The position numbers and the translations under genes are program-made. A stretch of 64,000 nt of DNA, taken from Planctomycetota bacterium (GTDB taxonomy: Bacteria; Planctomycetota; PLA2). Positions 8,145 to 58,925 of this stretch are shown here, in pieces. Under the pieces are notes generated by a model, which worked only from the letters and a program-made list of their open reading frames with translations, was not told where the DNA came from and ran no database searches. Each line of letters starts with the position of its first letter. Position 1 is the first letter of the stretch. The stretch spans positions 1,553 to 65,552 of the forward strand of contig JAZFYD010000249.1 in assembly GCA_036443405.1 (NCBI GenBank), written 5' to 3'.

Positions 8145-9658
8145 GAAACCGGCTGTTGTGCATCTGGCTAGGCGTCGCTCTGTGGGGCGCCGCCTGCTCG
8201 CATGACAATCCGGCGTTCCCGATCCTGCTCGACCCTACGCCCTTCGAGGCCCAGACCGAGGGCCGGATCGAGACCGACGCGTTCCGCGACACCGTGGATA
8301 CGGGCAGCGCGACCCAGTTCGAGTGGACCGCGTCGGGCGCTGTCGGATTCGGCTGGACCCTCCAAACGCCCGACGGCTCCACGGCGGCGCTCGACAATCC
8401 GTTCGCGGCGCAGCCGATGTTCGTTCCCGATGTCGACGGACGGTATCTGGTTTCCGCGGACATCACGTTCAGCGACGGCAGCTCGGCATCGGAGACCCGG
8501 CGGATCACCGCAGGCACTTCCATCTCAGCCGCAGCCTGCACACCGTGCCACGTCGCGCGCGCCAACGATGTTGCGAACTCCGGCCACGCGAACTGCGAAC
8601 GCTGCCATGGCCCGGGAAGCGAGCACAACAGCGACCCGCGCAACATCGCCAACTCGTTGCGGGCGGGCGTCTGCCAGGGTTGCCACCCCGGCTCGGCTAC
8701 CCAGTGGAGGAACTCGCCCCACTCCGCCGAACCGTTCTCGTTCGTGCTGGCCCGCGAGGATTGCCAGAGGTGCCACACGGGCCGCGGATTCATCCGCGAG
8801 ACGCGCGGCCAGGCGTTCGAGGCAGATCCGCCCGGCGCGGTCGGCGCGACCTGCGGCGCCTGCCACGAGCCTCACAGCAACCGGAACGAGCCCCGCCTAC
8901 GCATCTTCGGCAACGTGCAACTCACGTCCCGAGGCGAATTCAACTTCGGGCGCGCCGCCGCTTGCGGCACGTGCCATCAGAGCACGGTCGCCGACCCGCT
9001 AGCGCACACGGCCACGAGCCACCGGTTCACGTTCGCGGTCCACGCCAACATGATCGCCACGCGCGGAGCCGTCGAGTACGGCATGAGCTTCTCCAGCTCG
9101 TTCCACGCAACGACGGTCATGCGGCTGCGCTCCTTCACGGGGGATCCGAACGATTCCGACACCCCGGATTCCTGCGTGATCTGCCACATGGCGCCGTCGG
9201 GCGCCTCCACGCGGCCGGACGAGATGGGCGAGCATGCGCTCGTGTTGCGGATCAACGCCGAGGAACTGGCCATCGGCAACTGCGACCGCTGCCACGCCGG
9301 GCTGAGCACCTTCGACCGGAACATCGGCAAGGACTATGACGGGGACGGCGTGGCGCGCGGCGTTCAGACCGAGGTGCGCAGCCTGATCGAGATCCTGTTC
9401 CAGGCGCTGCGGGCCGCGGACGTGAACAACGCGCTGGACCGGCCCGGCGGCGCGAATACGGAGGTCGACATCGATCCCGACCTCTCGCTGACGACGCCCG
9501 AACTGCGGCAGGCGGTCTGGAATTACAACTTCAACGTCAACGACGGGTCCGCGGGGATTCACAACACGAAGTACGCCGTACAGCTGCTCCAGCGCACCTA
9601 CTCACAGATCACCGGACGCGAGTTCGCGAACGACTTCCCGCTCGCGGATATTGAATGA
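8141..9658 (+). CDS. Octaheme c-type cytochrome with a lipoprotein-like signal and an N-terminal PKD/Ig-like domain
   Basis: ATG 8141 forms an ATGA overlap with the upstream stop (track start 8123 is also possible). Signal LGVALWGAACS. Eight CXXCH motifs (CTPCH, CERCH, CQGCH, CQRCH, CGACH, CGTCH, CVICH, CDRCH). DYDGDG motif. C-terminal helix motif WNYNFNVNDGSAGIHNTKY. Confidence 0.8.
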   Translation: MRNRLLCIWLGVALWGAACSHDNPAFPILLDPTPFEAQTEGRIETDAFRDTVDTGSATQFEWTASGAVGFGWTLQTPDGSTAALDNPFAAQPMFVPDVDGRYLVSADITFSDGSSASETRRITAGTSISAAACTPCHVARANDVANSGHANCERCHGPGSEHNSDPRNIANSLRAGVCQGCHPGSATQWRNSPHSAEPFSFVLAREDCQRCHTGRGFIRETRGQAFEADPPGAVGATCGACHEPHSNRNEPRLRIFGNVQLTSRGEFNFGRAAACGTCHQSTVADPLAHTATSHRFTFAVHANMIATRGAVEYGMSFSSSFHATTVMRLRSFTGDPNDSDTPDSCVICHMAPSGASTRPDEMGEHALVLRINAEELAIGNCDRCHAGLSTFDRNIGKDYDGDGVARGVQTEVRSLIEILFQALRAADVNNALDRPGGANTEVDIDPDLSLTTPELRQAVWNYNFNVNDGSAGIHNTKYAVQLLQRTYSQITGREFANDFPLADIE

Positions 9659-9671
9659 ACGGAGGGTGACC

Positions 9672-12077
9672 ATGCGGCTTTCACTCATGCTCGCAGGCCT
9701 CGCGTTGTTTCTCCCGGGCTGCAACGACGACAACGTTGGGGTTCCGGTGGTCGTAGTTTCCGGCCAGTCCGCCGTCACGCTCGGGCGGACCGAGCAGCTA
9801 ACCGCGACGACGAGGAACGCCAGCGACACCGGATATCTCTGGTCGACCTCGGACCCCGTAGTCGCGGGCATCGACCAGTCCGGCGTAGTCACCGGGCGTG
9901 CCACCGGCCAGGCCATGATCACCGCCACGGGGAACCGTACGAGCGCTCTCGGTAGCCTGCTCGTGACCGTGAGCGCCGTTCCCGGCACCGGCGCGCCCTT
10001 CGAGGACGAGTGGGGCAACTCCCCGCACAACGACATCACGTCCGAGGCCTTCGCGCGCTGGACGGGCCCGATCTCGACCTCCTGCGCGAAGTGCCATTCG
10101 ACCCACGGGTTCCGAGACTTCCTCGGAGACGACGGTTCCACGCCGGGACAGGTGGACCAAGCCGCCGCGATCGGGTCCACCGTGGAGTGCGCCGCCTGCC
10201 ACAATGCGGCCTCGGCCGGATGGGACACGATGGCGTTTCCGAGCGGCGCCGTGATTCCGAACAATTTCGCGCCGGACGCACTCGGGCGCGAGGCAACTTG
10301 CATGGAGTGCCACCAGGGCCGGGCCTCGACGGTAACCGTGGACGACGCGATCGCCGGCGCTGCGCCCGCCGACGACGACACCGTCATGCCCGGAGTAGGT
10401 GCGATCGACGTGCACTATCTGCCCGGCGCGGCCACGTTCTACGCCGGGCTCGCCCGCGGCGCGTACGTCTACGCAGGTGAACGGTACGACATCCTGTGGC
10501 GTCACGTTCCCGGCTACGACAACTGCCAGGGCTGTCACGAGCCGCACGGGACCAACATCCGATTGAACGACTGCGCGCAATGCCACAACGTCTCGACCAT
10601 GCAAGACCTCCGCGACATCCGGATGGAGTCGTCGAAGACCCGGGACTACGACGGCGACGGCAACCTCATCGAGGGCGTGTACTTCGAAGTCGAAGGGGTG
10701 AAGGCGCTGCTCCTCGCCGCGATCCAGGAGTACGCCCGCGAGGTCGTCGGCCAGGCGATCGCATACGACGGCCGCTGGCGCAACGACGATAACGACAACG
10801 GCATCGTCGACACGGGCGAGACGACTTCGTTCTCGATGTTCACGCCGCGCCTGCTGAAGGCGACCTACAACTACAACTACGCCGAGCGCGACGGCGGCGC
10901 GTACGCCCACAACGCCAAGTTCATGATCCAGTGTCTGCGCGACGGGATCGACGACCTGAACATGGCGATCACGAACAAGATTGATGTCTCCGCCGCGGAC
11001 CGGAACGACCGCGGCCACTTCGACTCCACGGAGGAGGCGTTCCGGCACTGGGACAGCTCGGGTACGGTGCCGGCGTCGTGCGCAAAGTGCCACAGCGCCT
11101 CGAGAGGTCTTGAGCAGTTCCTCGAAACCGGCGGAACCGGCGACCAGCCGGCTTCAAACGGGTTCGAATGCGCCGTCTGCCACACGACGTTCAACACGTT
11201 CGAGACGCGGCGTATCCTCCAGGTCACGTTCCCCGGAGGCAAGATGACGCCGATGCTCGATCCGGGGACGCCGACAGACGACCCCGAGATGCAGGCCAAC
11301 ACCTGCATCCAGTGCCACCAGGGCCGCACGTCGAAAAAGGACATCGACGACGCGATCGATGCCTTCATCGACGATCCTGCGGCCAACCCGCTCGGCTTCC
11401 TGAACATCCACAACCTCGCCGCCGCGGCGACGCTGTTCGGCACGGACGCGATGGTCGGCTACGAGTACGACGGGAACACGTATCGGGCGAAGTTCGGACA
11501 CTTCAGTGCCGAGTCGTCGGCCTGCGTTTTCTGCCACAGCCCGCTGAACACCCAGCACACCTTCTTGCCGAACGACAACCTCAACACGTGCAACGGCTGT
11601 CACCAGGATCTGGACGGATCGCCACTGACGGACGTGAAGAACATCCGGCGCAACCGGAACGACGACTACAACGGCAACGGCCTCTTCCCCGGCTCGGGCG
11701 CCGGCAACGAGATCCTCAACGACGAGTTGCAACCGATCGCCGCGGCGCTACTCCTCGCGATCCAGGACTACGCGGAGAACACGGGTACCGGATCGGAGGG
11801 CCAGACGCGCGCCCAGGATCCCATCGTCCATTGCCCGGACACCTTCCCGTACTACTTCAAGGACACGAACAACAACGGAACATGCGACGCGGGCGAGAAC
11901 AACTTCGGGAACCGTTACACGGACTGGGACGGTGACCTGCTGAGGGCCACCCATAACTACCAGCACAGCCAGAAGGAACCCGGGGCCTGGGCTCACAACT
12001 TCTTCTACATCCTGCAGCTGGTCATCGACTCCATCGACGACCTCGGAGGCGACACGGACGATTACACGCGCCCCTAG
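9672..12077 (+). CDS. Decaheme c-type cytochrome with a lipoprotein-like signal, an N-terminal Big_2-like Ig domain and two tandem pentaheme modules
   Basis: GGAGG Shine-Dalgarno 6 nt upstream of ATG 9672 (the track starts at TTG 9651). Signal LAGLALFLPGC. Big_2-like segment GQSAVTLGRTEQLTATT...VVAGIDQSGVVTGRATGQAMITATG. 10 CXXCH motifs arranged 5+5, each set followed by an NYN(Y/Q)...G(A/W)..AHN helix motif. Confidence 0.85.
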   Translation: MRLSLMLAGLALFLPGCNDDNVGVPVVVVSGQSAVTLGRTEQLTATTRNASDTGYLWSTSDPVVAGIDQSGVVTGRATGQAMITATGNRTSALGSLLVTVSAVPGTGAPFEDEWGNSPHNDITSEAFARWTGPISTSCAKCHSTHGFRDFLGDDGSTPGQVDQAAAIGSTVECAACHNAASAGWDTMAFPSGAVIPNNFAPDALGREATCMECHQGRASTVTVDDAIAGAAPADDDTVMPGVGAIDVHYLPGAATFYAGLARGAYVYAGERYDILWRHVPGYDNCQGCHEPHGTNIRLNDCAQCHNVSTMQDLRDIRMESSKTRDYDGDGNLIEGVYFEVEGVKALLLAAIQEYAREVVGQAIAYDGRWRNDDNDNGIVDTGETTSFSMFTPRLLKATYNYNYAERDGGAYAHNAKFMIQCLRDGIDDLNMAITNKIDVSAADRNDRGHFDSTEEAFRHWDSSGTVPASCAKCHSASRGLEQFLETGGTGDQPASNGFECAVCHTTFNTFETRRILQVTFPGGKMTPMLDPGTPTDDPEMQANTCIQCHQGRTSKKDIDDAIDAFIDDPAANPLGFLNIHNLAAAATLFGTDAMVGYEYDGNTYRAKFGHFSAESSACVFCHSPLNTQHTFLPNDNLNTCNGCHQDLDGSPLTDVKNIRRNRNDDYNGNGLFPGSGAGNEILNDELQPIAAALLLAIQDYAENTGTGSEGQTRAQDPIVHCPDTFPYYFKDTNNNGTCDAGENNFGNRYTDWDGDLLRATHNYQHSQKEPGAWAHNFFYILQLVIDSIDDLGGDTDDYTRP

Positions 12078-12261
12078 AGGGCCACCCTGTACCTGCGCGG
12101 CGAGAAGCGCCGCACGAGGAGGCCTCGGTCGACAGGTCGGGCCCCGTTGTGGCTCGTTCTCCCGCGCGGTCCGGCTCCACTGCGGCCATTCTTCCCACGG
12201 TTCGCCTTTGCGCACGGCCGCGCGCGATAGTAAAACGGCCCTCCACAAAAGGAGTGCCGAC

Positions 12262-13803
12262 ATGAGCGGATTCGTACGGACGTGCGTTTGTTGCGTGGCT
12301 ATTCTCGTTGCCTTTTCCGGGGTTGCCTCGGCGCAGGACAAAAAGCCGAACATCCTCGTCATCTGGGGCGATGACATCGGCCAGGGCAACATCAGCGCCT
12401 ACACGAAGGGCGTGATGGGCTATCGCACGCCCAACATCGATCGTGTCGCCAAGGAGGGCATGATCTTTACCGACTACTACGCCGAGCAGAGCTGCACGGC
12501 GGGACGCTCCTCCTTCATCATGGGGCAGAGCGTCTTTCGCACGGGCCTCAGCAAGGTCGGCCTCCCAGGCGCGGACCTGGGCATGCAGAAAGAAGACCCC
12601 ACGATCCCAGGATTGCTCAAGGCGCACGGCTACGCGTCGGGGCAGTTCGGCAAGAACCACCTGGGCGACAAGGACGCGCACCTGCCGACGAACCACGGCT
12701 TCGACGAGTTCCTCGGCAACCTCTATCACTTAAACGCCGAGGAGGAGCCGGAGAACGAGGACTACCCGAAGGGCGAGGATTTCCGCAAGCGGTTCGGACC
12801 GAGGGGCGTGATCAAGTCCTTCGCCGGCGGGACGATCGAGGACACCGGCCCGTTGACCAAGAAGCGCATGGAGACGATCGACGAAGAGACGATCTCCGCG
12901 GCGATCGACTTCATCAAGCGGCAGCACAAGGCGGGCAAGCCGTTTTTCTGCTGGTGGAACGGCACGCGCATGCACTTCCGGACCCACGTCAAGAAGTCGC
13001 TACGCGGCATCTCCGGCCAGGACGAGTACTCCGACGGCATGGTCGAGCACGACATGCACGTCGGCCAGCTCCTCAAGGTGCTGGACGACCTCGGCATCGC
13101 CGACAACACGATCGTTTTCTACAGCACCGACAACGGTCCCCACCAGAACACGTGGCCGGACGCGGGCACGACACCCTTCCGCAGCGAGAAGAACACCAAC
13201 TGGGAGGGCGCCTACCGGGTGCCGGCGATGGTTCGCTGGCCGGGCAAGATCAAGGCGGGCTCGGTCTCCAACGAGATCATGCACCACATGGACTGGCTGC
13301 CCACGTTCGTGGCTGCTGCGGGCGACGCCGATGTCAAGGCCAAGTTGCTCAAGGGCCACAAGGCCATGGGTCGCGACTACAAGGTCCATCTTGACGGCTA
13401 CAACTTCCTGCCGCATCTGACCGGCGCGGCCAAGAAGGGCCCGCGCAAGGAGTTCTTCTACTTCACCGACGACGGCGATCTGGCATGCCTGCGCTACGAG
13501 GACTGGAAGGTGGTCTTCTTGGAGCAGCGCGCCACGGGAACGCTGTTGCTGTGGGCCAATCCCTTCACGGTCCTGCGCGTCCCCAAGATCTTCAATCTGC
13601 GTCGCGACCCGTACGAGCGGGCGGACCGGACTTCGAACCTGTACTACGAGTGGCTTATCGATCGCGTTTACCTGCTCACGCCGGCCCAGGTCATCGTGGG
13701 AGAGTTCCTTGAGACGTTCAAGGAGTACCCGCCGCGCCAGAAGGCCGCGAGCTTCGCGTTCGAGCGGGTCATGGAAAAACTCACCGAGGGCCGTGGTGGC
13801 TAA
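12262..13803 (+). CDS. Arylsulfatase (formylglycine-dependent sulfatase family), secreted
   Basis: AAGGAG Shine-Dalgarno upstream of ATG 12262. Signal peptide. KKPNILVIWGDDIG followed by the sulfatase signature SCTAGRSSFIMG (C-x-A-x-R). Confidence 0.85.
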   Translation: MSGFVRTCVCCVAILVAFSGVASAQDKKPNILVIWGDDIGQGNISAYTKGVMGYRTPNIDRVAKEGMIFTDYYAEQSCTAGRSSFIMGQSVFRTGLSKVGLPGADLGMQKEDPTIPGLLKAHGYASGQFGKNHLGDKDAHLPTNHGFDEFLGNLYHLNAEEEPENEDYPKGEDFRKRFGPRGVIKSFAGGTIEDTGPLTKKRMETIDEETISAAIDFIKRQHKAGKPFFCWWNGTRMHFRTHVKKSLRGISGQDEYSDGMVEHDMHVGQLLKVLDDLGIADNTIVFYSTDNGPHQNTWPDAGTTPFRSEKNTNWEGAYRVPAMVRWPGKIKAGSVSNEIMHHMDWLPTFVAAAGDADVKAKLLKGHKAMGRDYKVHLDGYNFLPHLTGAAKKGPRKEFFYFTDDGDLACLRYEDWKVVFLEQRATGTLLLWANPFTVLRVPKIFNLRRDPYERADRTSNLYYEWLIDRVYLLTPAQVIVGEFLETFKEYPPRQKAASFAFERVMEKLTEGRGG

Positions 13804-13804
13804 T

Positions 13805-14812
13805 TTGAATCCCGGAGGGCGCCACATCTGCGGCGCCCTCCTTGCTCTTTTTGTTTCGGTCTCGGGCTGCCGGTCGCCGCAGGCCGCGGCCGACGACACC
13901 CTGGCGTCGTGGAACGACGGCCCGGCGAAACAAGCGGTCGTCGATTTCGTGCGCCGCGTCACGAAAGAGGGCGGCAGGGACTACGTCGTGCCCGCAGCGC
14001 GCATCGCCACCTTCGACAACGACGGCACGCTCTGGTCGGAGAAGCCGCTCTATTTCCAGTTGCTGTTCGCCATCGACCGCGTCAAGGCGCTGGCCGGCGA
14101 ACATCCCGAGTGGAAAGAGCAGCAGCCCTTCAAGGGAGTGTTGGAAGGGGACATGGATGCCGCGCTCGCCGGCGGGAAGAAGTCGGTGCTTCAGCTGGTC
14201 ATGGCGACGCACGCGGGCATGACCACGGAACAGTTCGAGCGCATCGTCAAGGACTGGCTGGCGACCGCCAAGCACCCGCGCTTCAAGCGCCCCTATTCCG
14301 AGCTGGTGTATCAGCCCATGCTCGAGCTGTTGGACTACCTGAGGCAAAACGGTTTCAAGACCTACATCGTCTCCGGCGGCGGCATCGAGTTCATGCGCCC
14401 GTTCACGGAGCGGGTCTACGGGATTCCACCCGAACAGGTCGTCGGTAGCAGCATCAAGGTCAGGCACGAGTTGCGCAAGGGCGCTCCTGTGCTCGTGCGG
14501 CTGCCCGAGATCGACTTCTTCGACGACCAGGCGGGCAAGCCGGTGGCCATCCACAAGTTCATCGGCCGTCGGCCCATCTTCTCGGCCGGCAACTCCGATG
14601 GCGACTTCCAGATGCTCGAATGGACGACGGCCGGCGAGGGCCCGCGCTTCTCCCTGATCGTCCATCACACCGACGCACGCCGGGAGTGGGCTTACGACCG
14701 CAATTCGCACGTGGGCAAGCTGGACAGGGCGCTCGACGAGGCTCCCGCGCGCGGCTGGCTCGTCGTCGACATGAAGCGAGACTGGAAGCGCGTCTACCCC
14801 GCGGCGAAGTAG
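13805..14812 (+). CDS. Periplasmic HAD-superfamily hydrolase (phosphatase-like) lipoprotein
   Basis: HAD motif I FDNDGTLW. Lipoprotein-like LALFVSVSGC. The track ORF starts at 13709 inside the sulfatase gene; I prefer the in-frame TTG at 13805 just after the sulfatase stop, but the start is uncertain. Confidence 0.65.
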   Translation: MNPGGRHICGALLALFVSVSGCRSPQAAADDTLASWNDGPAKQAVVDFVRRVTKEGGRDYVVPAARIATFDNDGTLWSEKPLYFQLLFAIDRVKALAGEHPEWKEQQPFKGVLEGDMDAALAGGKKSVLQLVMATHAGMTTEQFERIVKDWLATAKHPRFKRPYSELVYQPMLELLDYLRQNGFKTYIVSGGGIEFMRPFTERVYGIPPEQVVGSSIKVRHELRKGAPVLVRLPEIDFFDDQAGKPVAIHKFIGRRPIFSAGNSDGDFQMLEWTTAGEGPRFSLIVHHTDARREWAYDRNSHVGKLDRALDEAPARGWLVVDMKRDWKRVYPAAK

Positions 14813-49314: not shown

Positions 49315-49785
49315 CTAACCGTTCCTCCATTTGGTGAACGGTTGCCGGCTCAGCTGTGAAACGCGGTAGCGCACATCCAGGGAGATGTCTTCGCCGACCC
49401 ATTCGGGCAGTTCGACCTCGGCGTCCTCAGCGGGCAGTTCGACCTCGGCGATGACCAGGCCGTCGTTCACTCCGTGAAAGACATCGACCTCCCAGGTGCG
49501 GCCGCCGAACTCGCGTTTGTAGCGCGTCTTTTCGATGACCACCGGGCAGAGGCTCTCGAGCATCGCTTCGGCGTCCGCTACCGGGATCTCGTATTCGAAC
49601 TCGTCGCGGGTCAGGCCGCGCTGGGCGCTCTTGATCGACAGAGTGGCGCGGTCCCCCTCGATGCGCGTGCGCACAACACCGTGATCCTCGATCGCGATGT
49701 AGCCCTGCCGCTGCAGGACACCGTCTGCGCCCGCCCGCCAACCGTCGCCGCTCACCAGAAACTTGCGTTCGATCTCATGCGCCAT
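49315..49785 (-). CDS. CYTH-domain protein (triphosphate tunnel metalloenzyme / class IV adenylate cyclase-like)
   Basis: Start MAHEIERKFLV carries the ExExK signature. About 156 aa. Confidence 0.75.
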   Translation of the reverse strand: MAHEIERKFLVSGDGWRAGADGVLQRQGYIAIEDHGVVRTRIEGDRATLSIKSAQRGLTRDEFEYEIPVADAEAMLESLCPVVIEKTRYKREFGGRTWEVDVFHGVNDGLVIAEVELPAEDAEVELPEWVGEDISLDVRYRVSQLSRQPFTKWRNG

Positions 49786-49865: not shown

Positions 49866-52800
49866 TTACTCAGGGAATCTGACGGCGACGTCGGTCGAAC
49901 CCGAACGCACTTCGCCCGCCTCCGCTTTCGTGCTCTTGCCCTGGTTCCAGCGGTGCGCCTGCAGCTTGTAGACACCCTTCTCCAGACCCTTGATTTCGAA
50001 TTTTCCGTCATTGCCCTGGATGAACGTGTGGCCGGACGACTTGCCGTCCGCTGTCGTTGCGGTCACGGTCACGAAACCCGCGGGCTGTCCGTCGGCGAGA
50101 TACACGGTGCCCGAGATCGTCTCGCCGACCGTGGCGATCAACTGGACCGTGTGCTGACCGGGGGCCACTTTGACGGATGTCTTGATGAATCCCTTGCCGG
50201 ACTCCTCGATGGACACCGTCAACTCCCCTTCGCTCGCGATGCCGGCGATGCGGAAGGTGCCGTCCGCGCCCGAGGTTGCGCTGCGGGTGCCGCTGCGGCC
50301 CATCGGCGATGCGATCTGCCGTGGCGTGTTCGGTGTCGTCACCATCACCAAAGCGCCCTCGACAGGCGCTCTCCCGCTATTCACGACGCGGCCGGTGATT
50401 ACACGACCTGCATTCAGGCGGAACTCGCGCACACCCGCGCCGGCTTCGACGTTTTTGACGGTTAGTTCCACGTAATCGGAGTGTGTGATGCGCAGCGTGA
50501 ACGGCTTCTGCGGCAGGCCCGTCAACTCGAAGCCGCCGTCGGCGTCGGTTTGCGCGTTTCCACCGCGCATCCATCGACCCGGTGTGTCCGCGAAGGTGGC
50601 CCGCACGTTCGCGCCGGCGACCCGCGTACCACCCGCGAGCACGCGCCCGCGCATCGTCCCGCCCTTCAGGACAACGATGCGAACCTCCGTCTGTCCGGTG
50701 CGCGCCTTGACCGTCTCGCCGTACATGCCCTCGGCGTAGACGTTGATGTCGTAGTTGCCGTCGGCCAGTCCGTACTGTTCGAAACGGCCGTTCGCGTCGC
50801 TGCGTCCGTTGAAGTAGGTCCGGCCACGGCTGCCGCCCGCGCCGCCGCCTTGGCCCTGCGCCGCGCCCGCGTCCTGGGACCAGGCGTTGAACTGGATGCC
50901 CTCGAGCGGTTGGCCGTCTCCATCGACTACGATGCCGGAGATGCCCAAGCCGCGCTCGAGCGTCACCTCCGGGAGTTTCTCCTCGGCTTTGCCCGGCGCG
51001 AGCGCGATCGACTCGCTCTTCTCCATGTAGCCGTTGTGGGCGTAGGAGACCTCGACCTGGCCGATCGGCGCGTTGCGCACGGTGAAGATGCCGTTGATAT
51101 CCGTCACACCGGGTTTGGTTCCGCCGGATCCCATCATCTGTTCCATCTGGCGCCGCATCGGGTTGTTGCCTTTTTGCTCCTCGCGGTCGATTGTGACGCG
51201 CACGCCCTGAATGGGCTCACCCTGTTCGTCGAGAACTTTGCCCGTCACGTTGAGCGGCTCGCTCAGCGAGATGCGCAGTTCGGCGCCGCTGCCCGGGGTT
51301 GTCTTGGTCGGCTCCGCCGGACCGTAGTCGCGATGGGATACCGCCAGGGAAATCGCTTTGTCGCGAGCGAACGGACCGAGCGAGAACGTCCCGTCGGCGT
51401 TGCTGTGCGTTTTCGGCGGGCCTCCGAGCATCATCATGCGAATCATGCCCATGCCCATGCCGCCGCCATCGGGGAGTTGCGTCACTTGCGCGCCCGCAAC
51501 GGGGTCCCCCTTGATGTCCACGACGATGCCGTTGACCGTGGCGCCCGGCGTGAGCAGAACCTCTTTTGTGATCTCGTTGGTGCCGGACGGGAACATCGAG
51601 CTGGCGCCACCTTGGTTGCGGCCAAACATTGCCATCATGTTGATGTTCAGTTCGGGCACGAAGTCCTTGTGCAGCGCGGCGACCGACGACGCCTTCAGCG
51701 GAACGCCGAAGAGTTCGTACTCGCCTTTCTCGTTGGAGAGGACGGTATTGCCGCCGAGGAACATGAGTTCGCGATCGAGGCCGCCCATCGCCCGCACGAT
51801 CGCGCCGGTGACGGGTTTTTGCGTCTCGCGGTTCTTGACGAGGCCGCGGACCACGCCACCCGGTTCGACCTCGACATCGCCGACATCGATCACGCCCTCT
51901 TTGATCTCGATCGCCGCGAGCTGCTTGATCTGCGGGACAAAACGGTCCGCCGTGAGGAACGCAGACTTCTGCTGGCCCATGCCGCCTGATTTCGTCGGGA
52001 GGTGTTCGATGACGACCTCGCCCGCGGCGTTGGAACTGCCGGTGCCGAAACCGCCGCCGTAGATCACCGCGACGCGTACGCCTTCCGCGGGTTTCTCCGT
52101 GTCCTTCAGAATCGTGCGCATGCGCAGCGTCACGCCAGGTTCGAGCTTGATGCGGACGTTGGTGGCGGGAACGGAGATGTCGGACTTGACGTGCGCCGCG
52201 AAACCGACGGCGCGCGCGACCAGGATCATGTTGCCCCGGCCCGACGTCGCGGTGGCTGGCAGCGAAAACGCCCCGTTGGCATCCGTCACGCTTTCGATCT
52301 TGGTGCCGCCGCGGAACATCGTCATCGCGTTGGCGAGCATCACGCGCGCGCCGGGCACTGGGTTGTCGCCCGGGTCCACGACGACACCGGACACGATGGC
52401 GGCGCCGAACAGATGAAAGTCGAGGCCGGTGAGGTCTTTGACGATCGGACGCGCAGGTTCGGTTTCCTGGCCGTGGCGCGGTGAGAACGCGCGGAACATG
52501 TATTGGTTCGCGCCCGGCAGCGTGAGTTCGTAGTTGCCGTCGTCGCCGGCTTTGGCGAACGCGATGACATCGTCGGGATTGCCGAGCCGCTGGAACAACT
52601 TGCTCGGGTCGATCGAGAGGCTCGCGCCGGTCGCCGTCACGGCTTCGACGGTGGCCCCGACGATCGGTTTGCCGCGCGCGTCGAGCACGCGACCCGACAC
52701 CGTGATCCCGTCGGTCAGTCGCAGTTCGCCAAGGTCGCCGGAGTGCTCCAGCAGGAAGTTGCGCGCGCCGACCGCCTTGCCGCTACGCGCCGCAAGGAGG

Positions 52801-53147
52801 TAGAACCCCGCGGCGAGCCCTTTGAGATCGAGGACGCCGTCGTCGCCGGCGTGCGTGGCGGTCTCATCCCCGCGCGGGTGGCGCAGAATGATCTCCGCGC
52901 CGCCGGCCGCGGCACCGTCGGGCGCGACGATCTTCATCGTGAAGCTCAGGTCGCCGCGCTTTTCGCCTTCGGCGTCCTTGTCTTCCGTCGCGTCGTCTGC
53001 GCCATCCTCCTGAGCGGTCATGCCCGAATCGGTGTCACGCGAGGAGTCAGACCGGCCTTCGCGACCCGAGTCCGAGTTCATCATGATCAGCAACAGCCCG
53101 CCGACACAGAGCGCGGCGACGAGAATGAGGAGGTTGAGCGGTTTCAT
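49866..53147 (-). CDS. Large membrane-anchored protein with about 12 carboxypeptidase-regulatory-like repeats carrying Met/Gly-rich loop insertions
   Basis: N-terminal anchor MKPLNLLILVAALCVGGLLLIMM. Repeats GRVLDARGKPIVGATVEAV, GVVVDPGDNPVPGARVML, GIVVDIKGDPVAGAQVTQL, GKVLDEQGEPIQGVRVTI, GIVVDGDGQPLEGIQFNA, GRVVNSGRAPVEGALVMV and others. Confidence 0.75.
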   Translation of the reverse strand: MKPLNLLILVAALCVGGLLLIMMNSDSGREGRSDSSRDTDSGMTAQEDGADDATEDKDAEGEKRGDLSFTMKIVAPDGAAAGGAEIILRHPRGDETATHAGDDGVLDLKGLAAGFYLLAARSGKAVGARNFLLEHSGDLGELRLTDGITVSGRVLDARGKPIVGATVEAVTATGASLSIDPSKLFQRLGNPDDVIAFAKAGDDGNYELTLPGANQYMFRAFSPRHGQETEPARPIVKDLTGLDFHLFGAAIVSGVVVDPGDNPVPGARVMLANAMTMFRGGTKIESVTDANGAFSLPATATSGRGNMILVARAVGFAAHVKSDISVPATNVRIKLEPGVTLRMRTILKDTEKPAEGVRVAVIYGGGFGTGSSNAAGEVVIEHLPTKSGGMGQQKSAFLTADRFVPQIKQLAAIEIKEGVIDVGDVEVEPGGVVRGLVKNRETQKPVTGAIVRAMGGLDRELMFLGGNTVLSNEKGEYELFGVPLKASSVAALHKDFVPELNINMMAMFGRNQGGASSMFPSGTNEITKEVLLTPGATVNGIVVDIKGDPVAGAQVTQLPDGGGMGMGMIRMMMLGGPPKTHSNADGTFSLGPFARDKAISLAVSHRDYGPAEPTKTTPGSGAELRISLSEPLNVTGKVLDEQGEPIQGVRVTIDREEQKGNNPMRRQMEQMMGSGGTKPGVTDINGIFTVRNAPIGQVEVSYAHNGYMEKSESIALAPGKAEEKLPEVTLERGLGISGIVVDGDGQPLEGIQFNAWSQDAGAAQGQGGGAGGSRGRTYFNGRSDANGRFEQYGLADGNYDINVYAEGMYGETVKARTGQTEVRIVVLKGGTMRGRVLAGGTRVAGANVRATFADTPGRWMRGGNAQTDADGGFELTGLPQKPFTLRITHSDYVELTVKNVEAGAGVREFRLNAGRVITGRVVNSGRAPVEGALVMVTTPNTPRQIASPMGRSGTRSATSGADGTFRIAGIASEGELTVSIEESGKGFIKTSVKVAPGQHTVQLIATVGETISGTVYLADGQPAGFVTVTATTADGKSSGHTFIQGNDGKFEIKGLEKGVYKLQAHRWNQGKSTKAEAGEVRSGSTDVAVRFPE

Positions 53148-53396
53148 CTGGGATCGACTCTCTTGCGTATCTGCCTTAGGCGGCGGCTACACGAATCCGC
53201 CCGGCCGCGCAACGCAAAGCATAGTCCGAAGTGGCTCGCGGCGCGGCATGCGGTTTCATCGCCCGGGCGGTGTACGGATCTCCCACACCGGCGCGAAATT
53301 GGGGCGGTGCGGTTGCAGTCGCACTCCCGATCGGAGACTCTAGCCACGTGGAGCCTCCAGGGGACCGTCGCAAACCCGTCGGGCACGTCACAAGGA

Positions 53397-53876
53397 ATGG
53401 CGGCGAAGGAAAGAGACATGGTTGTCGACCACGAAACGCGGATCGCGGACAGAGTTCGAAGCTGCAAGATCGAGCGCAGGTCATACGAAATCTGGCTGGG
53501 GAGCCTGAGACCAGCCAATTTCCTGTTGGTTGGTGTCGGGGGCACCTTGTCGCTTCTTGCCGGGATGTCCATCGTCACTCAGGCAAATCTGATCGATGCA
53601 AATACCGCGGGCTGGATAACTGTTGGTGGTGCGTTGCTGACGGGGCTCCACAACCGGCTCAGGTGCGACCCGCACCAAGCAGAGTGCTGGAAGCTGGCAA
53701 CTCAGTTTGCCGAACTACAAACGGACTACGAACGCCTAGAGCTTGAAACGCAGGAACAACCGCGGAAGGAGATGTTGATGGCAGTGGAGCAGAAGTTGGC
53801 TGCTGTTCGTGCCGGTAGGGGGGCGTTTCCGAGCGCAGGTGCCCGGAAACAGGCGGAACAAGAAGCCCAGGCGTGA
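53397..53876 (+). CDS. Small 2-TM protein, SLATT/DUF4231-like architecture (unverified)
   Basis: Only the last 160 codons of track ORF 52503..53876 lie outside the big minus-strand gene. Start is ATG 53397 or ATG 53418 (AAGGA Shine-Dalgarno). N-terminal amphipathic helix, TM hairpin (ANFLLVGVGGTLSLLAGMSIV / AGWITVGGALLTGL), then a helix with Trp (AECWKLATQFAELQTDYERLE). Rich in A/T-ending codons, unlike its neighbours. Confidence 0.55.
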   Translation: MAAKERDMVVDHETRIADRVRSCKIERRSYEIWLGSLRPANFLLVGVGGTLSLLAGMSIVTQANLIDANTAGWITVGGALLTGLHNRLRCDPHQAECWKLATQFAELQTDYERLELETQEQPRKEMLMAVEQKLAAVRAGRGAFPSAGARKQAEQEAQA

Positions 53877-53877
53877 A

Positions 53878-55026
53878 CTAACCCTCGTCCGACGCCTCGG
53901 CGTCTTCCGCTTCGGGGGAGAGTTCGCCCTCGGGGATCTCGAGGGGGGCGGCCTGTTCCGGCGACGAGGCCTCCTCGCTCACGTAGGTGTTCAACTCATT
54001 GACGAGTTGGCGCAACCGGCCGGTCGACCGGCGGTTGTACTGCAGCAGAACGCGGCCGAACTCCGGGCACTCGCCGTCTTCCCCGGGTAGCGGCGCGCCG
54101 GTTTCGATCGTTCCGTCGGTCAGGATGTCGGCAAAGTTCGTGTTGAGCGCGTCGAGTTGCTCGTCGTTCGGTGTTTGACGCACGCGCACGCTGAGGCGGC
54201 CGTCCACGAACCGGCTCGAATGGTAGTTCGAGTAGAAGTTGAGGATCTCGCGCACCGCCTCGTCGGCGTCGTCGGTGACCTTGTAGAGGTGAATGTCGTC
54301 GGGACTGATCATGCCGCGCGCCAAAAGGTGCTCGCGCACGTACTCGTCCAGGTCCTTCCAGTACGTGCCGCCCTTCGGCTCGAGGTAGACGATCGGCAGG
54401 AGCTGCGCTTTGCCGGTCTGCACGAGCGTCAGGGTCTCGAACCCTTCATCATGCGTTCCGAAGCCACCGGGGAACAGCACGACGGCGTGCGACTCCTTGA
54501 TGAAGATCACCTTGCGCGTGAAGAAGTAGCGGAAGTTCACCAGCTTCTTGTCGCCCGCGATGGTCTCGTTGGCCGACTGCTCGAACGGCAGGCGGATGTT
54601 CACGCCGAAGGACTGGTCGCGGCCGGCGCCACCCTGCGCGGCGCCCATGATGCCGTCGCCGGCGCCGGTGATGACCATCCAACCCGCTTCGCGGATGCGC
54701 TCGGCAAACTCGTAGGCCATGTTCCACTCGGGATGGTCCTCCGGCGTGCGGGCACTGCCGAAAACCGAGACCTTGCGCACGTGCTCGAACGGCTGAAAGA
54801 CGCGGAAAGCGTGCCGCATCTCCTTGAACGCGCTGTTGAGCAACTTCACGTCCCCACGCGGCGTTCCGTCCTTGATGAGCCGGATCGCAGTGACGATCAG
54901 CTCCTGGACGAAATCTCGCGGTAGCTCCTCGCCGTACTCTGCCTGGGCGTTCTTGACCAGCTCTTCGATCTGCGCATCGAGTCCCGCATGTCGGAGTCGA
55001 TATCGTCGCGGCGTTCGTTTGCCCAT
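53878..55026 (-). CDS. LOG-family (TIGR00730 / SLOG superfamily) nucleotide-binding Rossmann protein, long form with N- and C-terminal extensions
   Basis: Start MGKRTPRRYRLRHAG (ATG 55026). The remaining 880 aa of track ORF 53878..57660 are antisense artefact. Motifs VSVFGSAR, ITGAGDGIMGAA, and the LOG signature PGGFGTHDE (PGGxGTxxE). Confidence 0.8.
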   Translation of the reverse strand: MGKRTPRRYRLRHAGLDAQIEELVKNAQAEYGEELPRDFVQELIVTAIRLIKDGTPRGDVKLLNSAFKEMRHAFRVFQPFEHVRKVSVFGSARTPEDHPEWNMAYEFAERIREAGWMVITGAGDGIMGAAQGGAGRDQSFGVNIRLPFEQSANETIAGDKKLVNFRYFFTRKVIFIKESHAVVLFPGGFGTHDEGFETLTLVQTGKAQLLPIVYLEPKGGTYWKDLDEYVREHLLARGMISPDDIHLYKVTDDADEAVREILNFYSNYHSSRFVDGRLSVRVRQTPNDEQLDALNTNFADILTDGTIETGAPLPGEDGECPEFGRVLLQYNRRSTGRLRQLVNELNTYVSEEASSPEQAAPLEIPEGELSPEAEDAEASDEG

Positions 55027-55134
55027 CGCGCGTAGGGTACCCCACCGTTCGAGTTGCGCGATGTTGGGTTGCGCCGAAATCGACGCGCCGCACCGCGAAC
55101 CGGCGGTCCCCGCGCCCGGATACGCTTGGCCAAA

Positions 55135-56082
55135 ATGACTGGGATCCTCGAGGTCGATCTCGCGCGGTTCGATACCGGCGGCGCCGCGGAGCGCCGGGCG
55201 GTTGTGGACGGGGTCCGCCGCAGCCTGGAGACGGGGTTCGTGTTCCTGTCTTCGGCGATCGACCCTTCGCTCATCGACCGGGCGTACGCGCTGCTCGGGG
55301 ACTTCTTCCGTAAGCCGGTCGAAGAAAAAGATCGGCTCGCGGTTCCCGGTTCGAAAGGCCAAGTGGGTTACACCGGGACGCTGGTCGAGACCGCCGCGCA
55401 ATCCGACCATGCGGACTGGAAGGAAATGCTGAACTGGGGTCGCACGCCAGCGCCTGGCCACCCGCTGCGCGAGCGGTACCCGCACCGGTACATGGATGCG
55501 CTGCTGCCGGAGGAGACGGTCCCCGGCATTCACGACGCGCTCCTCGACCTGCACGACAAGATGCAGGAGTGCCAGCGTCTGTTCCTGCGCATCGTTGCCC
55601 TCGGGCTCGGCTGCGCCGAGGGGTATTTCGACACGCTCCTGGAAAACGGCCCGACGCTGACGCGCGCGATCCGGTATCCGCCGATGGCCGCGGCGCCCGC
55701 CGACGGGCACGTATGGGCGGAGGAGCACCTCGACATCAATCTGACGACGCTCCTCCCGCGGGCAACGGCGCGCGGCCTGCAGATGAGGGGTCCCAACGGC
55801 TGGGAGGACGTGGCGCCGCCGGAAGGAGCAGCGATCCTGAACACCGGGATGATGCTCGAACGAATCACGAACGGACGCATCTCGGCCGGGGTCCATCGGG
55901 TCGTCGGCGAGCCGGGTTCGAGTGCCGAGCGGATGAGCGTCGTGCAGTTTTGCCACCCGACACCCTGGTCCGTTCTCGCGCCGCTGCCGACTTGCATCGA
56001 CGCCGAACACCCGATCCGCTGGCCGCCGATCACAGCCGCCGACTGGCTCGACCAAGTCCTCCACGAGATCGGAATGGCGTAA
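55135..56082 (+). CDS. 2-oxoglutarate/Fe(II)-dependent oxygenase (isopenicillin-N-synthase-like)
   Basis: Start MTGILEVDLARF (ATG 55135). HxD facial-triad motif EHLDIN, a distal His and RxS in GRISAGVHRV. Confidence 0.75.
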   Translation: MTGILEVDLARFDTGGAAERRAVVDGVRRSLETGFVFLSSAIDPSLIDRAYALLGDFFRKPVEEKDRLAVPGSKGQVGYTGTLVETAAQSDHADWKEMLNWGRTPAPGHPLRERYPHRYMDALLPEETVPGIHDALLDLHDKMQECQRLFLRIVALGLGCAEGYFDTLLENGPTLTRAIRYPPMAAAPADGHVWAEEHLDINLTTLLPRATARGLQMRGPNGWEDVAPPEGAAILNTGMMLERITNGRISAGVHRVVGEPGSSAERMSVVQFCHPTPWSVLAPLPTCIDAEHPIRWPPITAADWLDQVLHEIGMA

Positions 56083-56127
56083 CCGCGATGTGGTGGCGCC
56101 GCCGATCGCTGGCGATAACCCTATAAT

Positions 56128-57396
56128 GTGGCCCGTCCCGATGAGGTAGCAACTTTGCGATGGATCATTGTCTTGGTAGTGGGGGTTTGCATCGGGGCGG
56201 CCCTTCCCGGTCTTCTTGACGGTTCGAACGACGGCGTCCCCGCACGCACGGCGAGTGAGTCCTCCGACGGACTCCCCGGCCTGAACGTCACGGCCAACCC
56301 CGACGACGCCGAGTTGCTCGCGCGTATCGCCGAGCTCCAGGCGCTCATCGAGAAGCTCCGTGCGAACCCGTTCCCGAAACCGAAGGAGTGGGAGGCCGAT
56401 ACGCCCGAGTCGCTCAAGAAGCTGCTCGAGGAGGCGTATGCGGAGAACAACGTCGATTGGCTGGTCGAGGTCATCCGGCGCCTGCTCGCGATGGGCGACG
56501 AGGGTTATCCGATCCTGCGCCGCCTGATCGAGGACATCGCGTTCCGCGGGAAATTCCTGCCGACCGGTGCGGACTTCCGCGTCGACCAGGCTTACGAGTT
56601 CGGCAAGATCTTCACCAACCAGGAAGAAGACATCATCGGGTTCCTGAACTTCCTGCTGCGCGAGAAGCGGACCATCCCGATCATGAAGCAAATCGCGATG
56701 ATGGGTGCGGCCTACTTCGTCGGCTCGAAGGCGAAGGGCACGGAGGAGCTGCAACAGACGTTGTTGCAGATCTTCATGGAGCAGGGTGCAACAGGTGGAG
56801 CCGGCGCGATGATGGGCGGGATGCCGGCGAACGCCGCGCAGAAGATGCAGGTGTTTGCGATGGCCATGTCGGGCGACCCGGCGATGGTCGGGCCGTTGCG
56901 GGCGCAACTCGCTGCGACCAAGGACAAGGGCGTGCAGGGCGACATCATCGGCGCTCTCGCGTACCTCGGTGATCCCACGATGGTGCCGCTCATCAAGGAG
57001 CGCCTCGATCCGACCAAGGGAGACTTCAGTCGCGAACTCGATGCGCTCGGTCGTGTCGGCACGCCGGAGGCACACGACACCGCGGCCGGATTCCTGAAGG
57101 CAATTCCGGACTCGAAGCGCTTCTATCGCCATGCGCGCCGGTACATGAGGTCGGGTGGCGGCATCTCCGCCGTGATGCTCATGCAGGAGCGCATCAAGGC
57201 GAACCCGAACGATCCGGAGGTCGCGCGCACGATCGGATCGCTGCGGCGTTTCCCGACGACCGAGAGCCGCGACACGTTGGCGTTCGTTCGTGACAGCGCA
57301 GGCGACGCGAAGGTGAGAAAGCGCGCCGACGATGCGGTGCAGGAGATCGACCGCACACTGCGTGGCGAGATCCCCGAGAGGTTCCAGGCGAAGTAG
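56128..57396 (+). CDS. Secreted or anchored alpha-helical repeat (HEAT-like) protein of unknown function
   Basis: N-terminal hydrophobic helix WIIVLVVGVCIGAALPGLL, followed by helical repeats. Start uncertain. Confidence 0.5.
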   Translation: MARPDEVATLRWIIVLVVGVCIGAALPGLLDGSNDGVPARTASESSDGLPGLNVTANPDDAELLARIAELQALIEKLRANPFPKPKEWEADTPESLKKLLEEAYAENNVDWLVEVIRRLLAMGDEGYPILRRLIEDIAFRGKFLPTGADFRVDQAYEFGKIFTNQEEDIIGFLNFLLREKRTIPIMKQIAMMGAAYFVGSKAKGTEELQQTLLQIFMEQGATGGAGAMMGGMPANAAQKMQVFAMAMSGDPAMVGPLRAQLAATKDKGVQGDIIGALAYLGDPTMVPLIKERLDPTKGDFSRELDALGRVGTPEAHDTAAGFLKAIPDSKRFYRHARRYMRSGGGISAVMLMQERIKANPNDPEVARTIGSLRRFPTTESRDTLAFVRDSAGDAKVRKRADDAVQEIDRTLRGEIPERFQAK

Positions 57397-57398
57397 AC

Positions 57399-58925
57399 GT
57401 GCCGTTGCGCGCGTCGATTCTCGCTGGGCTGCTCGTAGGGTTGCTCGCGGCGGGCGCTCATGCCGAGGGACAGGACGCGGAGGAACGTCCGGGGCTGCAA
57501 AACGCATCGTTCGAACAGGCCGGCGGCGGCGTTCCCGGCTGGACGTTGACGCAGGGCGCGACGACCGACGGCTCGGGGGCGAGTTCCAAGCTCGTGATCG
57601 ATCGCACCGTGGCGTCGGCGGGTTCGGCGTCGCTGCGGGTCGAAGGGCGCGCCGACACATCGCTTTGGAACTTGGCGGAGCAGAAACTCGTCGCGCGTGC
57701 CGGCGATCGAGTATCGCTCCGCGCGCGCGCGAAGTGCATTGGCGTGAAGCGCGAGGGGCATCAGTTCGGCAACGCGCATGTGCATCTGATATTTGTGGAC
57801 GCCGCCGGAAAGAGGTTGGCGTTCGTGACGTCTTTGGCGCTGTCGGGTGAGACCGATTGGACCACTCTCGGGGTTACAGCGATCGCACCGCCGGGCACGA
57901 CGCACCTGCGCGCCGGCTTGTTCTTTTCGATGACCGGCACGATGTGGTTCGACGGCGTCAAGGTGACGCGGGCCGCGACGGAGCCGTTCGACAGGGCCGT
58001 GCGTGAAGCGGCGCTGCGCGATCTCTTCGAACACCTCGGTCGCACTTACACATTCTTCGGGTATCGCGGCAAGCCGACACTGTCCGGATTGCGCAAGAAG
58101 CACGAAGCGAGTGTGACCGCCGCGAAGGCGCGACCGGAGTTCCAGGCAGCGCTCGTCCGCATGCTTGCTGAGTTGACGGACATGCACGTTTGGCTGAAGA
58201 CGCCGGAGGGCATCGAGCCGACCATGCGAGAGCAGCATCCGAAGAACTGGAACATCCAGGCGATCCGGAACGCGCTGACGAAGACGTATCTCACGGAGAA
58301 CAACCTGCTTGCTGGCGAGATCGGATCCGTCGCGTACCTCGGCCTGGGTTCGTTTCAGTACGGTGGCCCAATTCAGCAAGCGATGCTGCACAGTGCCCTC
58401 GACCAGATGAAAGACGCGACCGCCATCGTGATCGACGTGCGTTTCAACATGGGGGGCAACGAGGCCATCGCGCAAGGGGTGGCCGCGCGCTTTTGCGCGA
58501 AGCGGGTGCTCTATGCGAAGAACGCGCGTCGTGACGGCGCCGGATTTCGCGAGTCAGGCCGGCGCTTTGTCGTGCCGAGTAGCCGCACGCCCTACACCAA
58601 GCCTGTCGTCGTGCTGCAGGGGCGCAACTGCGTCAGCAGCGGCGAGGGGTTCGTGGCGATGATGCGAGTGCTCGACAGCGTGACGACCGTTGGGCAACCG
58701 ACGCGCGGATCGAGTGGCAACCCGCAGCCGTTTCCGCTGCTGCCCGGCCTCGAGGTGTGGAGTTCGACTTGGCGCAGCCTCACGCCCGATGGAAAGTGCC
58801 ACGAGGGTGTCGGTTTGCCGCCCGACGTGGAGTTCGATCCGCCGCCGGCCGAGTTCGCGACCAGCGACCCGCTGCTTGAAAAGGCGTTGGCGATCTTGGG
58901 CAAGAAGACCGGCGCGCCGAAATGA
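57399..58925 (+). CDS. S41-family peptidase with an N-terminal carbohydrate-binding-like (CBM4/9-type) domain
   Basis: Signal peptide. NASFEQAGGGVPGWTL...SLRVEG jelly-roll-like N-domain. S41 core IVIDVRFNMGGN and VLQGRNCVSSGEGF (catalytic Ser context). Confidence 0.7.
   Translation: MPLRASILAGLLVGLLAAGAHAEGQDAEERPGLQNASFEQAGGGVPGWTLTQGATTDGSGASSKLVIDRTVASAGSASLRVEGRADTSLWNLAEQKLVARAGDRVSLRARAKCIGVKREGHQFGNAHVHLIFVDAAGKRLAFVTSLALSGETDWTTLGVTAIAPPGTTHLRAGLFFSMTGTMWFDGVKVTRAATEPFDRAVREAALRDLFEHLGRTYTFFGYRGKPTLSGLRKKHEASVTAAKARPEFQAALVRMLAELTDMHVWLKTPEGIEPTMREQHPKNWNIQAIRNALTKTYLTENNLLAGEIGSVAYLGLGSFQYGGPIQQAMLHSALDQMKDATAIVIDVRFNMGGNEAIAQGVAARFCAKRVLYAKNARRDGAGFRESGRRFVVPSSRTPYTKPVVVLQGRNCVSSGEGFVAMMRVLDSVTTVGQPTRGSSGNPQPFPLLPGLEVWSSTWRSLTPDGKCHEGVGLPPDVEFDPPPAEFATSDPLLEKALAILGKKTGAPK

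Follow-up and report, generated by a model that had tools for sequence, protein, structure and literature searches.

A solo SLATT-like membrane protein gene, probably an accidental neighbour of a conserved LOG gene, in a hypervariable slot

In a 64,000-nt stretch of contig JAZFYD010000249.1 from a Planctomycetota bacterium (assembly GCA_036443405.1; hereafter the window), a short gene for a protein with two transmembrane helices (the 2TM gene) converges on a 382-aa gene of the LOG family, and the stop codons of the two genes lie 1 nt apart. SLATT effectors are reported to partner SLOG, SMODS or TIR proteins (Burroughs 2015, as cited in 10.64898/2026.04.29.721553 and PMC7159879). Besides the LOG models, the LOG protein scores above the cut-off of PF18306, 'SLOG cluster4' (45.6 versus 26.3 bits). 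The locus raises the question of whether the two genes form a functional SLOG-SLATT pair, as the original prediction proposed, in which LOG would sense or process a nucleotide signal and gate the adjacent SLATT-like pore as a two-gene conflict system, or are neighbours by accident. Our analysis indicates that they are very probably accidental neighbours and that the 2TM gene is a solo SLATT-like accessory gene. The fuller reading, which we consider likely, is that of a single-gene cassette in a hypervariable slot behind the conserved LOG gene, encoding a putative membrane-perturbing defence or toxin effector. That the protein serves specifically in defence or as a pore is, by our analysis, at best an even bet.

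We compared eight loci carrying LOG orthologues (loci are denoted by L-numbers). The 2TM gene was found only in L008, where LOG is 99% identical, the same 152-aa gene is present and the DNA is nearly identical to the window. In L009 (91% LOG identity), the same slot holds, in the same orientation, a gene for a 256-aa DUF4357 protein matching the PADLOC model PDC-S14 (E 5e-91), and other genes occupy this position in L010 (72%), L011 (64%) and L020 (70%). On its other side LOG forms a divergent pair with a DIOX_N 2OG-Fe(II) oxygenase gene in 5/5 relatives of the lineage (L008-L011 and L020, 64-99% LOG identity). In L010 and L011, as in the window, genes for a HEAT protein, Leu/Phe-tRNA protein transferase (Aat) and a rhodanese-MBL protein follow this pair, and the synteny of LOG with the oxygenase, HEAT, Aat and rhodanese-MBL genes is maintained without the 2TM gene. 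The LOG-oxygenase pairing was absent from three loci of Myxococcales and Deltaproteobacteria (L021-L023), in which LOG sits among housekeeping genes; LOG and the oxygenase may constitute a lineage-specific functional pair.

The reverse comparison was made by tblastn, which detected no LOG in 15 loci with 2TM relatives (56.9 kb); a 20-kb Methylomonas locus with another relative also lacks LOG. Co-occurrence, which the original prediction had proposed to examine, was thus found in 0 of 16 loci with 2TM relatives and in 1 of 8 loci with LOG orthologues, the latter being the 99%-identical strain, and the proposed functional pairing is not borne out. A CYTH gene that had been counted as part of the same nucleotide-signalling neighbourhood is indeed present (49315-49782, minus strand), with a native G+C content at third codon positions (GC3, 0.81). 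It lies inside a separate co-directional operon, between two minus-strand genes for ~1000-aa CarboxypepD_reg repeat proteins, and shows no sign of a connection to the 2TM gene.

LOG itself is an ordinary member of the type-II LOG family in conserved synteny. Translation confirmed the predicted 382-aa protein with its PGGFGTHDE motif, which passes the cut-offs of TIGR00730 (104.1 versus 96.35 bits) and PF03641 (95.7 versus 27 bits). Its relatives comprise at least 8,000 clusters of ~380 aa at E<=1e-10, with named sources in Planctomycetota, Myxococcales and Deltaproteobacteria and ~60% identity across phyla. Among the 120 matches listed, identity is 58-99% over 91-100% of the length, and all but seven cover at least 95% of it. 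Since at least 8,000 full-length relatives share this size, the N- and C-terminal extensions, originally regarded as unusual, are the family norm. We placed LOG by its closest solved structures, in sequence and in fold, rather than by a phylogenetic tree. The nearest PDB entries by phmmer were the type-II proteins 5zi9, 5wq3, 9us2 and 1wek (E 1e-32 to 1e-40), whereas PpnN and type-I LOGs reached only ~1e-6; Foldseek ranked the structures as sequence did, type-II first (E 1e-9 to 1e-12). An AlphaFold2 (AF2) model contains a three-helix N-terminal unit (residues 14-80), a Rossmann core, a C-terminal alpha/beta domain and a disordered acidic tail. The terminal part, residues ~268-382 (53878-54225), consists of a beta-beta-alpha-beta-beta-alpha domain (~268-346, pLDDT >90) and the tail, for which there is no Pfam model and no counterpart in solved LOG or PpnN structures. 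LOG thus groups with housekeeping type-II LOGs irrespective of its neighbourhood, and not as the conflict-system SLOG that had been envisaged; it shows neither the conserved linkage to an effector nor the patchy, mobile distribution of a SLOG sensor. The lack of co-occurrence and the housekeeping type of LOG are two of the outcomes that the original prediction had itself named as telling against it; a third is that no Pfam SLATT/DUF4231 model reaches its threshold, as described below.

The variable element is instead the DNA between LOG and the next gene. The cassette spans from the LOG stop codon to shared intergenic DNA upstream of a gene for a 1093-aa repeat protein. In the alignment with L009, homology ends right after the LOG stop and resumes near window position 53290. 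Contigs from four sediment-metagenome runs cover both cassette flanks, one of them, from run X2, with 99.2% identity over 53878-54400. These contigs part from the window at 53289/53298 and at 53877/53878, and the sequence beyond these points is unlike it. This sequence differs between runs X2 and X3 and, where it adjoins LOG, also from L009. Read depth over 53340-53825 was 0 in all four runs. At least three or four different fillings of the slot exist in related populations. Inspection of the cassette borders revealed no meaningful repeats, tRNA-like elements or recombinase genes, and the cassette leader contains no sigma-70-like promoter and no Rfam match. The simplest guess is that fillings are exchanged by homologous recombination in the conserved flanks.

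The 2TM open reading frame (ORF) is a real gene under purifying selection, a conclusion drawn from 25 clusters of relatives at 58-73% identity and a dN/dS (ratio of nonsynonymous to synonymous divergence) of ~0.1. Values of dN were 0.16-0.35 with dS saturated; where dS was measurable, dN/dS was 0.08-0.13. The plus-strand frame from 53397 to 53876 translates without a stop into the 159 aa originally reported, and its TGA stop (53874-53876) lies, as had been stated, 1 nt from the convergent LOG stop (53878-53880, minus strand). The start codon must be chosen, because the frame is the tail of a spurious high-GC ORF of 457 aa (52503-53876, plus strand). The ATG at 53397 is immediately abutted by AAGGA, and the ATG at 53418 is preceded by AGGA at 53407-53410, 7 nt upstream. 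We prefer the latter because of this spacing and because the public gene call (152 aa) and the relatives begin at the residue equivalent to M8; the true start is thus likely ATG 53418, and the product 152 rather than 159 aa. Residue numbers below follow the 159-aa version. A second spurious ORF, of 1260 aa (53878-57660, minus strand), overruns real genes; such very long spurious ORFs are typical of DNA with 65% G+C, and ORF length alone is misleading here. A search among sequencing runs for RNA evidence of expression returned sediment DNA runs only.

The foreign composition that the original prediction had noticed was confirmed on measurement. At 0.656, the GC3 of the 2TM gene falls below the range of nine neighbouring genes (0.81-0.86); LOG has a native value of 0.86. 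The window mean is 0.83 (standard deviation 0.044; 42 ORFs), placing the 2TM gene ~4 standard deviations below it, the lowest of any gene in the window. The 42 ORFs were picked by their codon-position G+C pattern and include two spurious ones, so the proportion of 153-codon windows within them that are as low in GC3, only 3%, is an upper bound. The remaining window genes look native in composition, indicating that the anomaly is a single gene and not an island. Both the foreign composition and the horizontal acquisition originally proposed are supported.

We then considered what the 2TM protein is. The window protein gave no SLATT or DUF4231 match in Pfam even at E<=10 and no match in an NCBIfam scan. 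Among 20 close relatives, one matched SLATT_6 (E 0.049) and one SLATT_1 (E 0.13), both sub-threshold. The 70 distant relatives gave sub-threshold matches to DUF4231 (17), HALZ (8), SLATT_6 (6), SLATT_fungal (5) and SLATT_4 (4), with a best E of 0.0025 for DUF4231 and 0.0013-0.0031 for SLATT/DUF4231 overall; the three scored DUF4231 matches reached 13-14 bits against a cut-off of 24.7. The PADLOC models of CBASS 2TM effectors, which carry no curated cut-off, were matched more consistently: PDLC00706 and PDLC00712 by 20/20 close relatives and PDLC00710 by 19/20, the best E for each model being 3e-7 to 1e-6. For the window protein E was 8.4e-6, with residues 20-132 aligned to positions 16-127 of a 172-position model, a span that exceeds the transmembrane hairpin. 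A Foldseek search of BFVD with the AF2 model returned nine SLATT-annotated proteins among the top 30 matches (probability 0.82-1.00, TM-score 0.41-0.62, weak E of 0.025-0.56). The best of these were SLATT-annotated proteins of giant viruses (probability 1.00, TM-score 0.5-0.62, weak E of 0.025-0.1); the PDB offers no solved SLATT structure with which to compare the model. From these three independent weak lines, namely PADLOC, sub-threshold Pfam matches and fold, we consider the protein probably a remote homologue of SLATT/CBASS-2TM effectors. It belongs to no modelled family and is SLATT-like at the superfamily level only. Of the SLATT-like assignment first made for it, the architecture stands, now joined by the PADLOC 2TM profiles and, more weakly, by the fold, and membership of a Pfam or NCBIfam family at threshold does not.

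The AF2 model (mean pLDDT 79) was built with a 20-sequence alignment and places helices at residues 2-36, 39-62, 68-116, 120-139 and 147-158, a layout matched by the hydropathy profile. Both methods agree with the anatomy first described, an N-terminal helix, a two-helix membrane hairpin and a C-terminal helix, and both indicate the architecture of SLATT proteins, with two transmembrane helices between cytoplasmic N- and C-terminal helices. After a short loop, the second transmembrane helix and its cytoplasmic continuation are predicted to form one long helix (68-116). The transmembrane segments are rich in Gly, Ser and Thr (GVGGTLSLLAG in the first, and GWITVGGALLTG). Residue conservation was counted over 70 representatives of the superfamily clustered at <=50% identity. 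In the N-terminal helix and first transmembrane helix, R19 is conserved in 53/70, C23 in 58/70 and G56 in 61/70. Directly after the hairpin a signature follows, H-x4-C-[DE]-x-[HY]-Q-x-E-C, with H85 in 66/70, C90 in 65/70, D/E91 in 66/70, H/Y93 in 64/70, Q94 in 68/70, E96 in 58/70 and C97 in 57/70. To our knowledge, the motif has not been described in SLATT families. The Trp that had appeared conserved, W98, occupies a position that is R or K in the relatives. Because C90, H93/Q94 and C97 are spaced i, i+3/4 and i+7, they would lie on one helix face just past the membrane; on the N-terminal helix, R19, C23, E26, Y30 and W33 share a face. This spacing makes it plausible that the two cytoplasmic helices are bridged by a Cys3-His/Gln cluster. 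Patterns of Cys loss across the representatives revealed no clear pairing.

The family is small, almost always single-domain, and without a Pfam or NCBIfam model. A word-indexed search of 5.8 billion proteins found the 25 close clusters, nearly all of 152-160 aa (~154), none annotated in Pfam and all named 'hypothetical'. Searching 1.84 billion representatives at 50% identity with a profile yielded only 132 clusters at E<=1e-3, nearly all of 145-170 aa with one matched stretch each, and no additional, fused Pfam domain was present in the ten longest members. Named hosts are a Dehalococcoidia metagenome-assembled genome, Caballeronia mineralivorans and Methylomonas sp. BW4-1, and the G+C content of the relatives is equal to or below that of the host contig. 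By its nearest LOG relatives the window has a Planctomycetota-like character, and its source is sediment metagenomes.

The surroundings of the relatives (Table 1) were searched for partners by scanning Pfam, NCBIfam and PADLOC with the 2TM and LOG proteins, the 20 close and 70 distant relatives and ~35 neighbour proteins. No defence partner for the 2TM protein emerged among the ~35 neighbours. No neighbour gene is shared across the 15 loci (56.9 kb) and the Methylomonas locus, and no SMODS/CD-NTase, SLOG, TIR, GTPase or reverse transcriptase (RT) partner appears among the window neighbours or in the 16 relative loci, LOG itself not being a conserved neighbour. A CD-NTase cyclase operon is likewise absent: the window neighbours are LOG and a CarboxypepD_reg repeat protein, and no cyclase occurs in the relatives' loci. 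Alignment of the DNA upstream of ten relatives revealed nothing conserved. Conserved downstream partners were looked for and rejected. The proteins encoded downstream in L001 (238 aa) and L004 (301 aa) are unrelated to each other. In Methylomonas, the 2TM relative is followed after a 3-nt gap by a gene for a 352-aa membrane protein and then by genes for proteins of 226 and 468 aa, none with a Pfam match and none with a homologue in any other locus. We also noted that methyltransferase genes shortly precede the 2TM relative at two different loci (L015:35-802 and L019:1326-2057; L018:1808-2554); the arrangement may be fortuitous or may reflect a weak functional link with the Cys-rich protein. 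The L015 copy of the 2TM gene has a TGA at the C23 codon (L015:1704-1706) where its closely similar sister copy in L019, which shares its context, has TGT; the L019 copy is instead frameshifted within a run of A at codons 5-7 (L019:~2920-2935). Selenocysteine at the TGA was rejected as the simplest reading, given the TGT and the separate frameshift in L019. The apparent independent inactivation of the two copies is consistent with a costly or toxic gene.

Table 1. Positions of the features discussed and contexts of 2TM relatives (window coordinates unless a locus is named)
Feature	Coordinates	Strand	Remarks
Single-gene cassette	53290..53877	.	~590 bp, strain-variable; from L009 alignment and sediment contig breaks
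Cassette 5' leader/promoter region	53290..53417	+	no recognisable element
2TM gene	53418..53876	+	152 aa; very probably a solo SLATT-like membrane protein
C23	53463-53465	+	partner Cys in N-terminal helix; conserved in 58/70
Transmembrane helix 1, residues 39-62	53511..53582	+	AF2 helix; hydropathy maximum 1.85
Transmembrane helix 2, residues 68-88	53598..53660	+	weakly hydrophobic, 0.6-0.8; runs into cytoplasmic helix
Signature H85-x4-C90-[DE]-x-[HY]93-Q94-x-E96-C97	53649..53687	+	directly 3' of transmembrane helix 2; 70 representatives
Type-II LOG family gene	53878..55026	-	382 aa; PF03641, TIGR00730; unrelated housekeeping-type neighbour
2OG-Fe(II) oxygenase	55054..56082	+	Pfam; conserved divergent LOG neighbour, outside the 2TM unit
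PDC-S14 protein	L009:3331-4101	-	256 aa; slot equivalent to window 53290-53877; convergent with LOG
L001, Caballeronia mineralivorans	6095-10930		low-GC island: tyrosine integrase, MNT/HepT toxin-antitoxin pair, Fic fragment, Abi_alpha/PDC-S47-like fragment
L002			large serine recombinase, IS66 fragment, PRiA4_ORF3
L012/L014			WapI-like immunity protein, rve-type transposase; same gene in other context in L013
L015/L019 and L018			ICMT/PEMT-type methyltransferases upstream, 36% identical to each other over the catalytic part
L016			sigma-54 activator fragment and abhydrolase
L024, Methylomonas sp. BW4-1	9154-13874		low-GC islet beside contractile-injection-system cluster (Pvc16_N, sheath, tube, gp19, GPD)

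We propose that the hypervariable slot at the LOG 3' end received a single-gene accessory cassette (~53290-53877). The cassette product would be a 152-aa inner-membrane protein whose two-helix hairpin, rich in Gly and Ser, is flanked on the cytoplasmic side by an N-terminal helix and by C-terminal helices. SLATT proteins are described as predicted pore-forming, signal-responsive effectors (PMC7159879; DRT10 preprint, 10.64898/2026.04.29.721553), and the membrane effector classes of CBASS are covered in PMC12480259. With SLATT effectors as the model, the 2TM protein may oligomerise in the membrane and perturb it, by pore formation or depolarisation, and may work on its own in defence, in abortive infection or in the manner of a toxin. 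The strongest candidate for a built-in structural Zn site, or for a gate that senses redox state or a metal, is the juxtamembrane cluster (C23, H85, C90, H/Y93, Q94, C97), which could replace the nucleotide-sensing partner of canonical SLATT systems. Read-through from the convergent LOG gene, whose stop is 1 nt away with no terminator between, may dampen 2TM expression.

Several observations weigh against this proposal. The evidence for a defence role comes from neighbours in a few short contigs and from one cargo gene, PDC-S14, itself a candidate. In Pfam and NCBIfam, the SLATT/DUF4231 models stay below threshold for the window protein and for every relative. Foldseek gave weak E-values, and a chance match is possible between helical hairpins as simple as these. 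Foldseek of the model against the PDB gave nothing below E 0.44, and a profile search of PDB sequences with the family gave no match. The family was not found in 50,697 phage records or in IMG/VR, and 72,556 plasmids yielded one marginal match (E 0.2); a phage or plasmid origin of the gene was rejected on the same grounds. Finally, some contexts are ordinary, such as an ICMT methyltransferase with a His phosphatase, or an abhydrolase.

A first alternative is that the 2TM gene is no conflict gene but encodes a non-lethal accessory membrane protein (a metal or redox anchor, or a stress protein) or a selfish addiction-type toxin without a defence role. The Cys/His cluster suggests metal or redox chemistry, the neighbourhoods with ICMT/PEMT methyltransferases upstream (two loci), His phosphatase and abhydrolase are metabolic, the phage and plasmid collections are nearly devoid of the family, and the independent disruption of the L015 and L019 copies implies that loss of the gene is tolerated. 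We nevertheless regard this alternative as unlikely, given the patchy spread across phyla (Planctomycetota, Dehalococcoidia, Caballeronia, Methylomonas) with foreign composition, the association with integrases, insertion sequences, toxin-antitoxin modules and defence candidates, and the similarity in sequence and fold to pore-type effectors. A specific form of the proposed effector, in which the Cys3-His/Gln cluster of a solo SLATT-like pore would sense redox state, a metal or an electrophile and gate permeabilisation without nucleotide messenger or partner, is quite unlikely. If true, such a solo gated pore would amount to a minimal switch for abortive infection or stress suicide, made of one protein and passed between phyla on a cassette of ~0.6 kb. 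Very unlikely, in our view, is an orphaned or trans-acting effector that answers a cyclic-nucleotide or ADPR-type signal from a CD-NTase or TIR protein encoded at another site in the genome, or that is left stranded from a system of this kind. In favour of this reading are the homology to profiles of CBASS 2TM effectors and the response of ThsH, the SLATT protein of type VII Thoeris, to cADPR (10.64898/2025.12.03.692087); on the other hand, the family is solo in every context seen, so that the partnerless state is its norm, purifying selection on the gene is maintained, and no generator gene lies among the immediate window neighbours. Against the adjacency, the PF18306 match and the reported SLOG-SLATT partnerships, the convergent orientation, the missing co-occurrence, the PDC-S14 gene or other DNA in the slot of close relatives, the cross-phylum spread of a housekeeping-type LOG and its GC3 of 0.86 versus 0.66 for the 2TM gene leave a signalling pair of LOG and the 2TM protein scarcely credible.

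Under the preferred reading of an accidentally adjacent, single-gene cassette, the tempting SLOG-SLATT inference is removed: LOG is a core gene, its neighbour strain-specific cargo, and adjacency is no evidence of a signalling pair. The analysis also defines a small, unmodelled, always-solo relative of SLATT/CBASS-2TM effectors with a distinctive Cys/His signature. Should the 2TM protein prove toxic or protective alone, it would reveal how membrane effectors of the SLATT type can be set off when no partner generates a nucleotide; the DRT10 preprint (10.64898/2026.04.29.721553) treats the activation of SLATT effectors as an open question. The LOG 3' end in this sediment lineage is a hypervariable slot that could be mined for further single-gene cargo.

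Among known systems, the type-II LOGs of S. coelicolor (5ZI9), C. glutamicum (5WQ3), T. thermophilus (TT1465, 1WEK) and N. meningitidis (YgdH, 9US2) are closest to the window LOG and share with it the PGGxGTxxE motif, the TIGR00730/PF03641 core and an N-terminal helical extension, whereas the solved proteins lack the C-terminal alpha/beta domain and acidic tail of the ~380-aa family. PpnN, the (p)ppGpp-regulated nucleotide 5'-monophosphate nucleosidase of the E. coli YgdH type, also has accessory domains at both ends of a LOG-fold core, but these flanking domains are different and its similarity to the window LOG is marginal (NF038390, 28.5 bits versus a cut-off of 450). PDC-S14, the PADLOC phage defence candidate with a DUF4357 domain, resembles the 2TM gene in being a single-gene accessory cassette in exactly the same slot and orientation, and differs in encoding an unrelated, soluble 256-aa protein without sequence similarity to the 2TM protein. 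The SLATT effectors (CBASS 2TM, ThsH and the SLATT-5 protein of DRT10/UG17) resemble the 2TM protein in size (~150-170 aa), in the order of N-terminal helix, two-helix transmembrane hairpin and C-terminal cytoplasmic helices, and in their location in accessory, defence-type DNA. In contrast to them, the 2TM family stands without a SMODS/CD-NTase, SLOG, TIR or RT partner in ~16 contexts and carries its own signature motif together with the N-terminal Cys.

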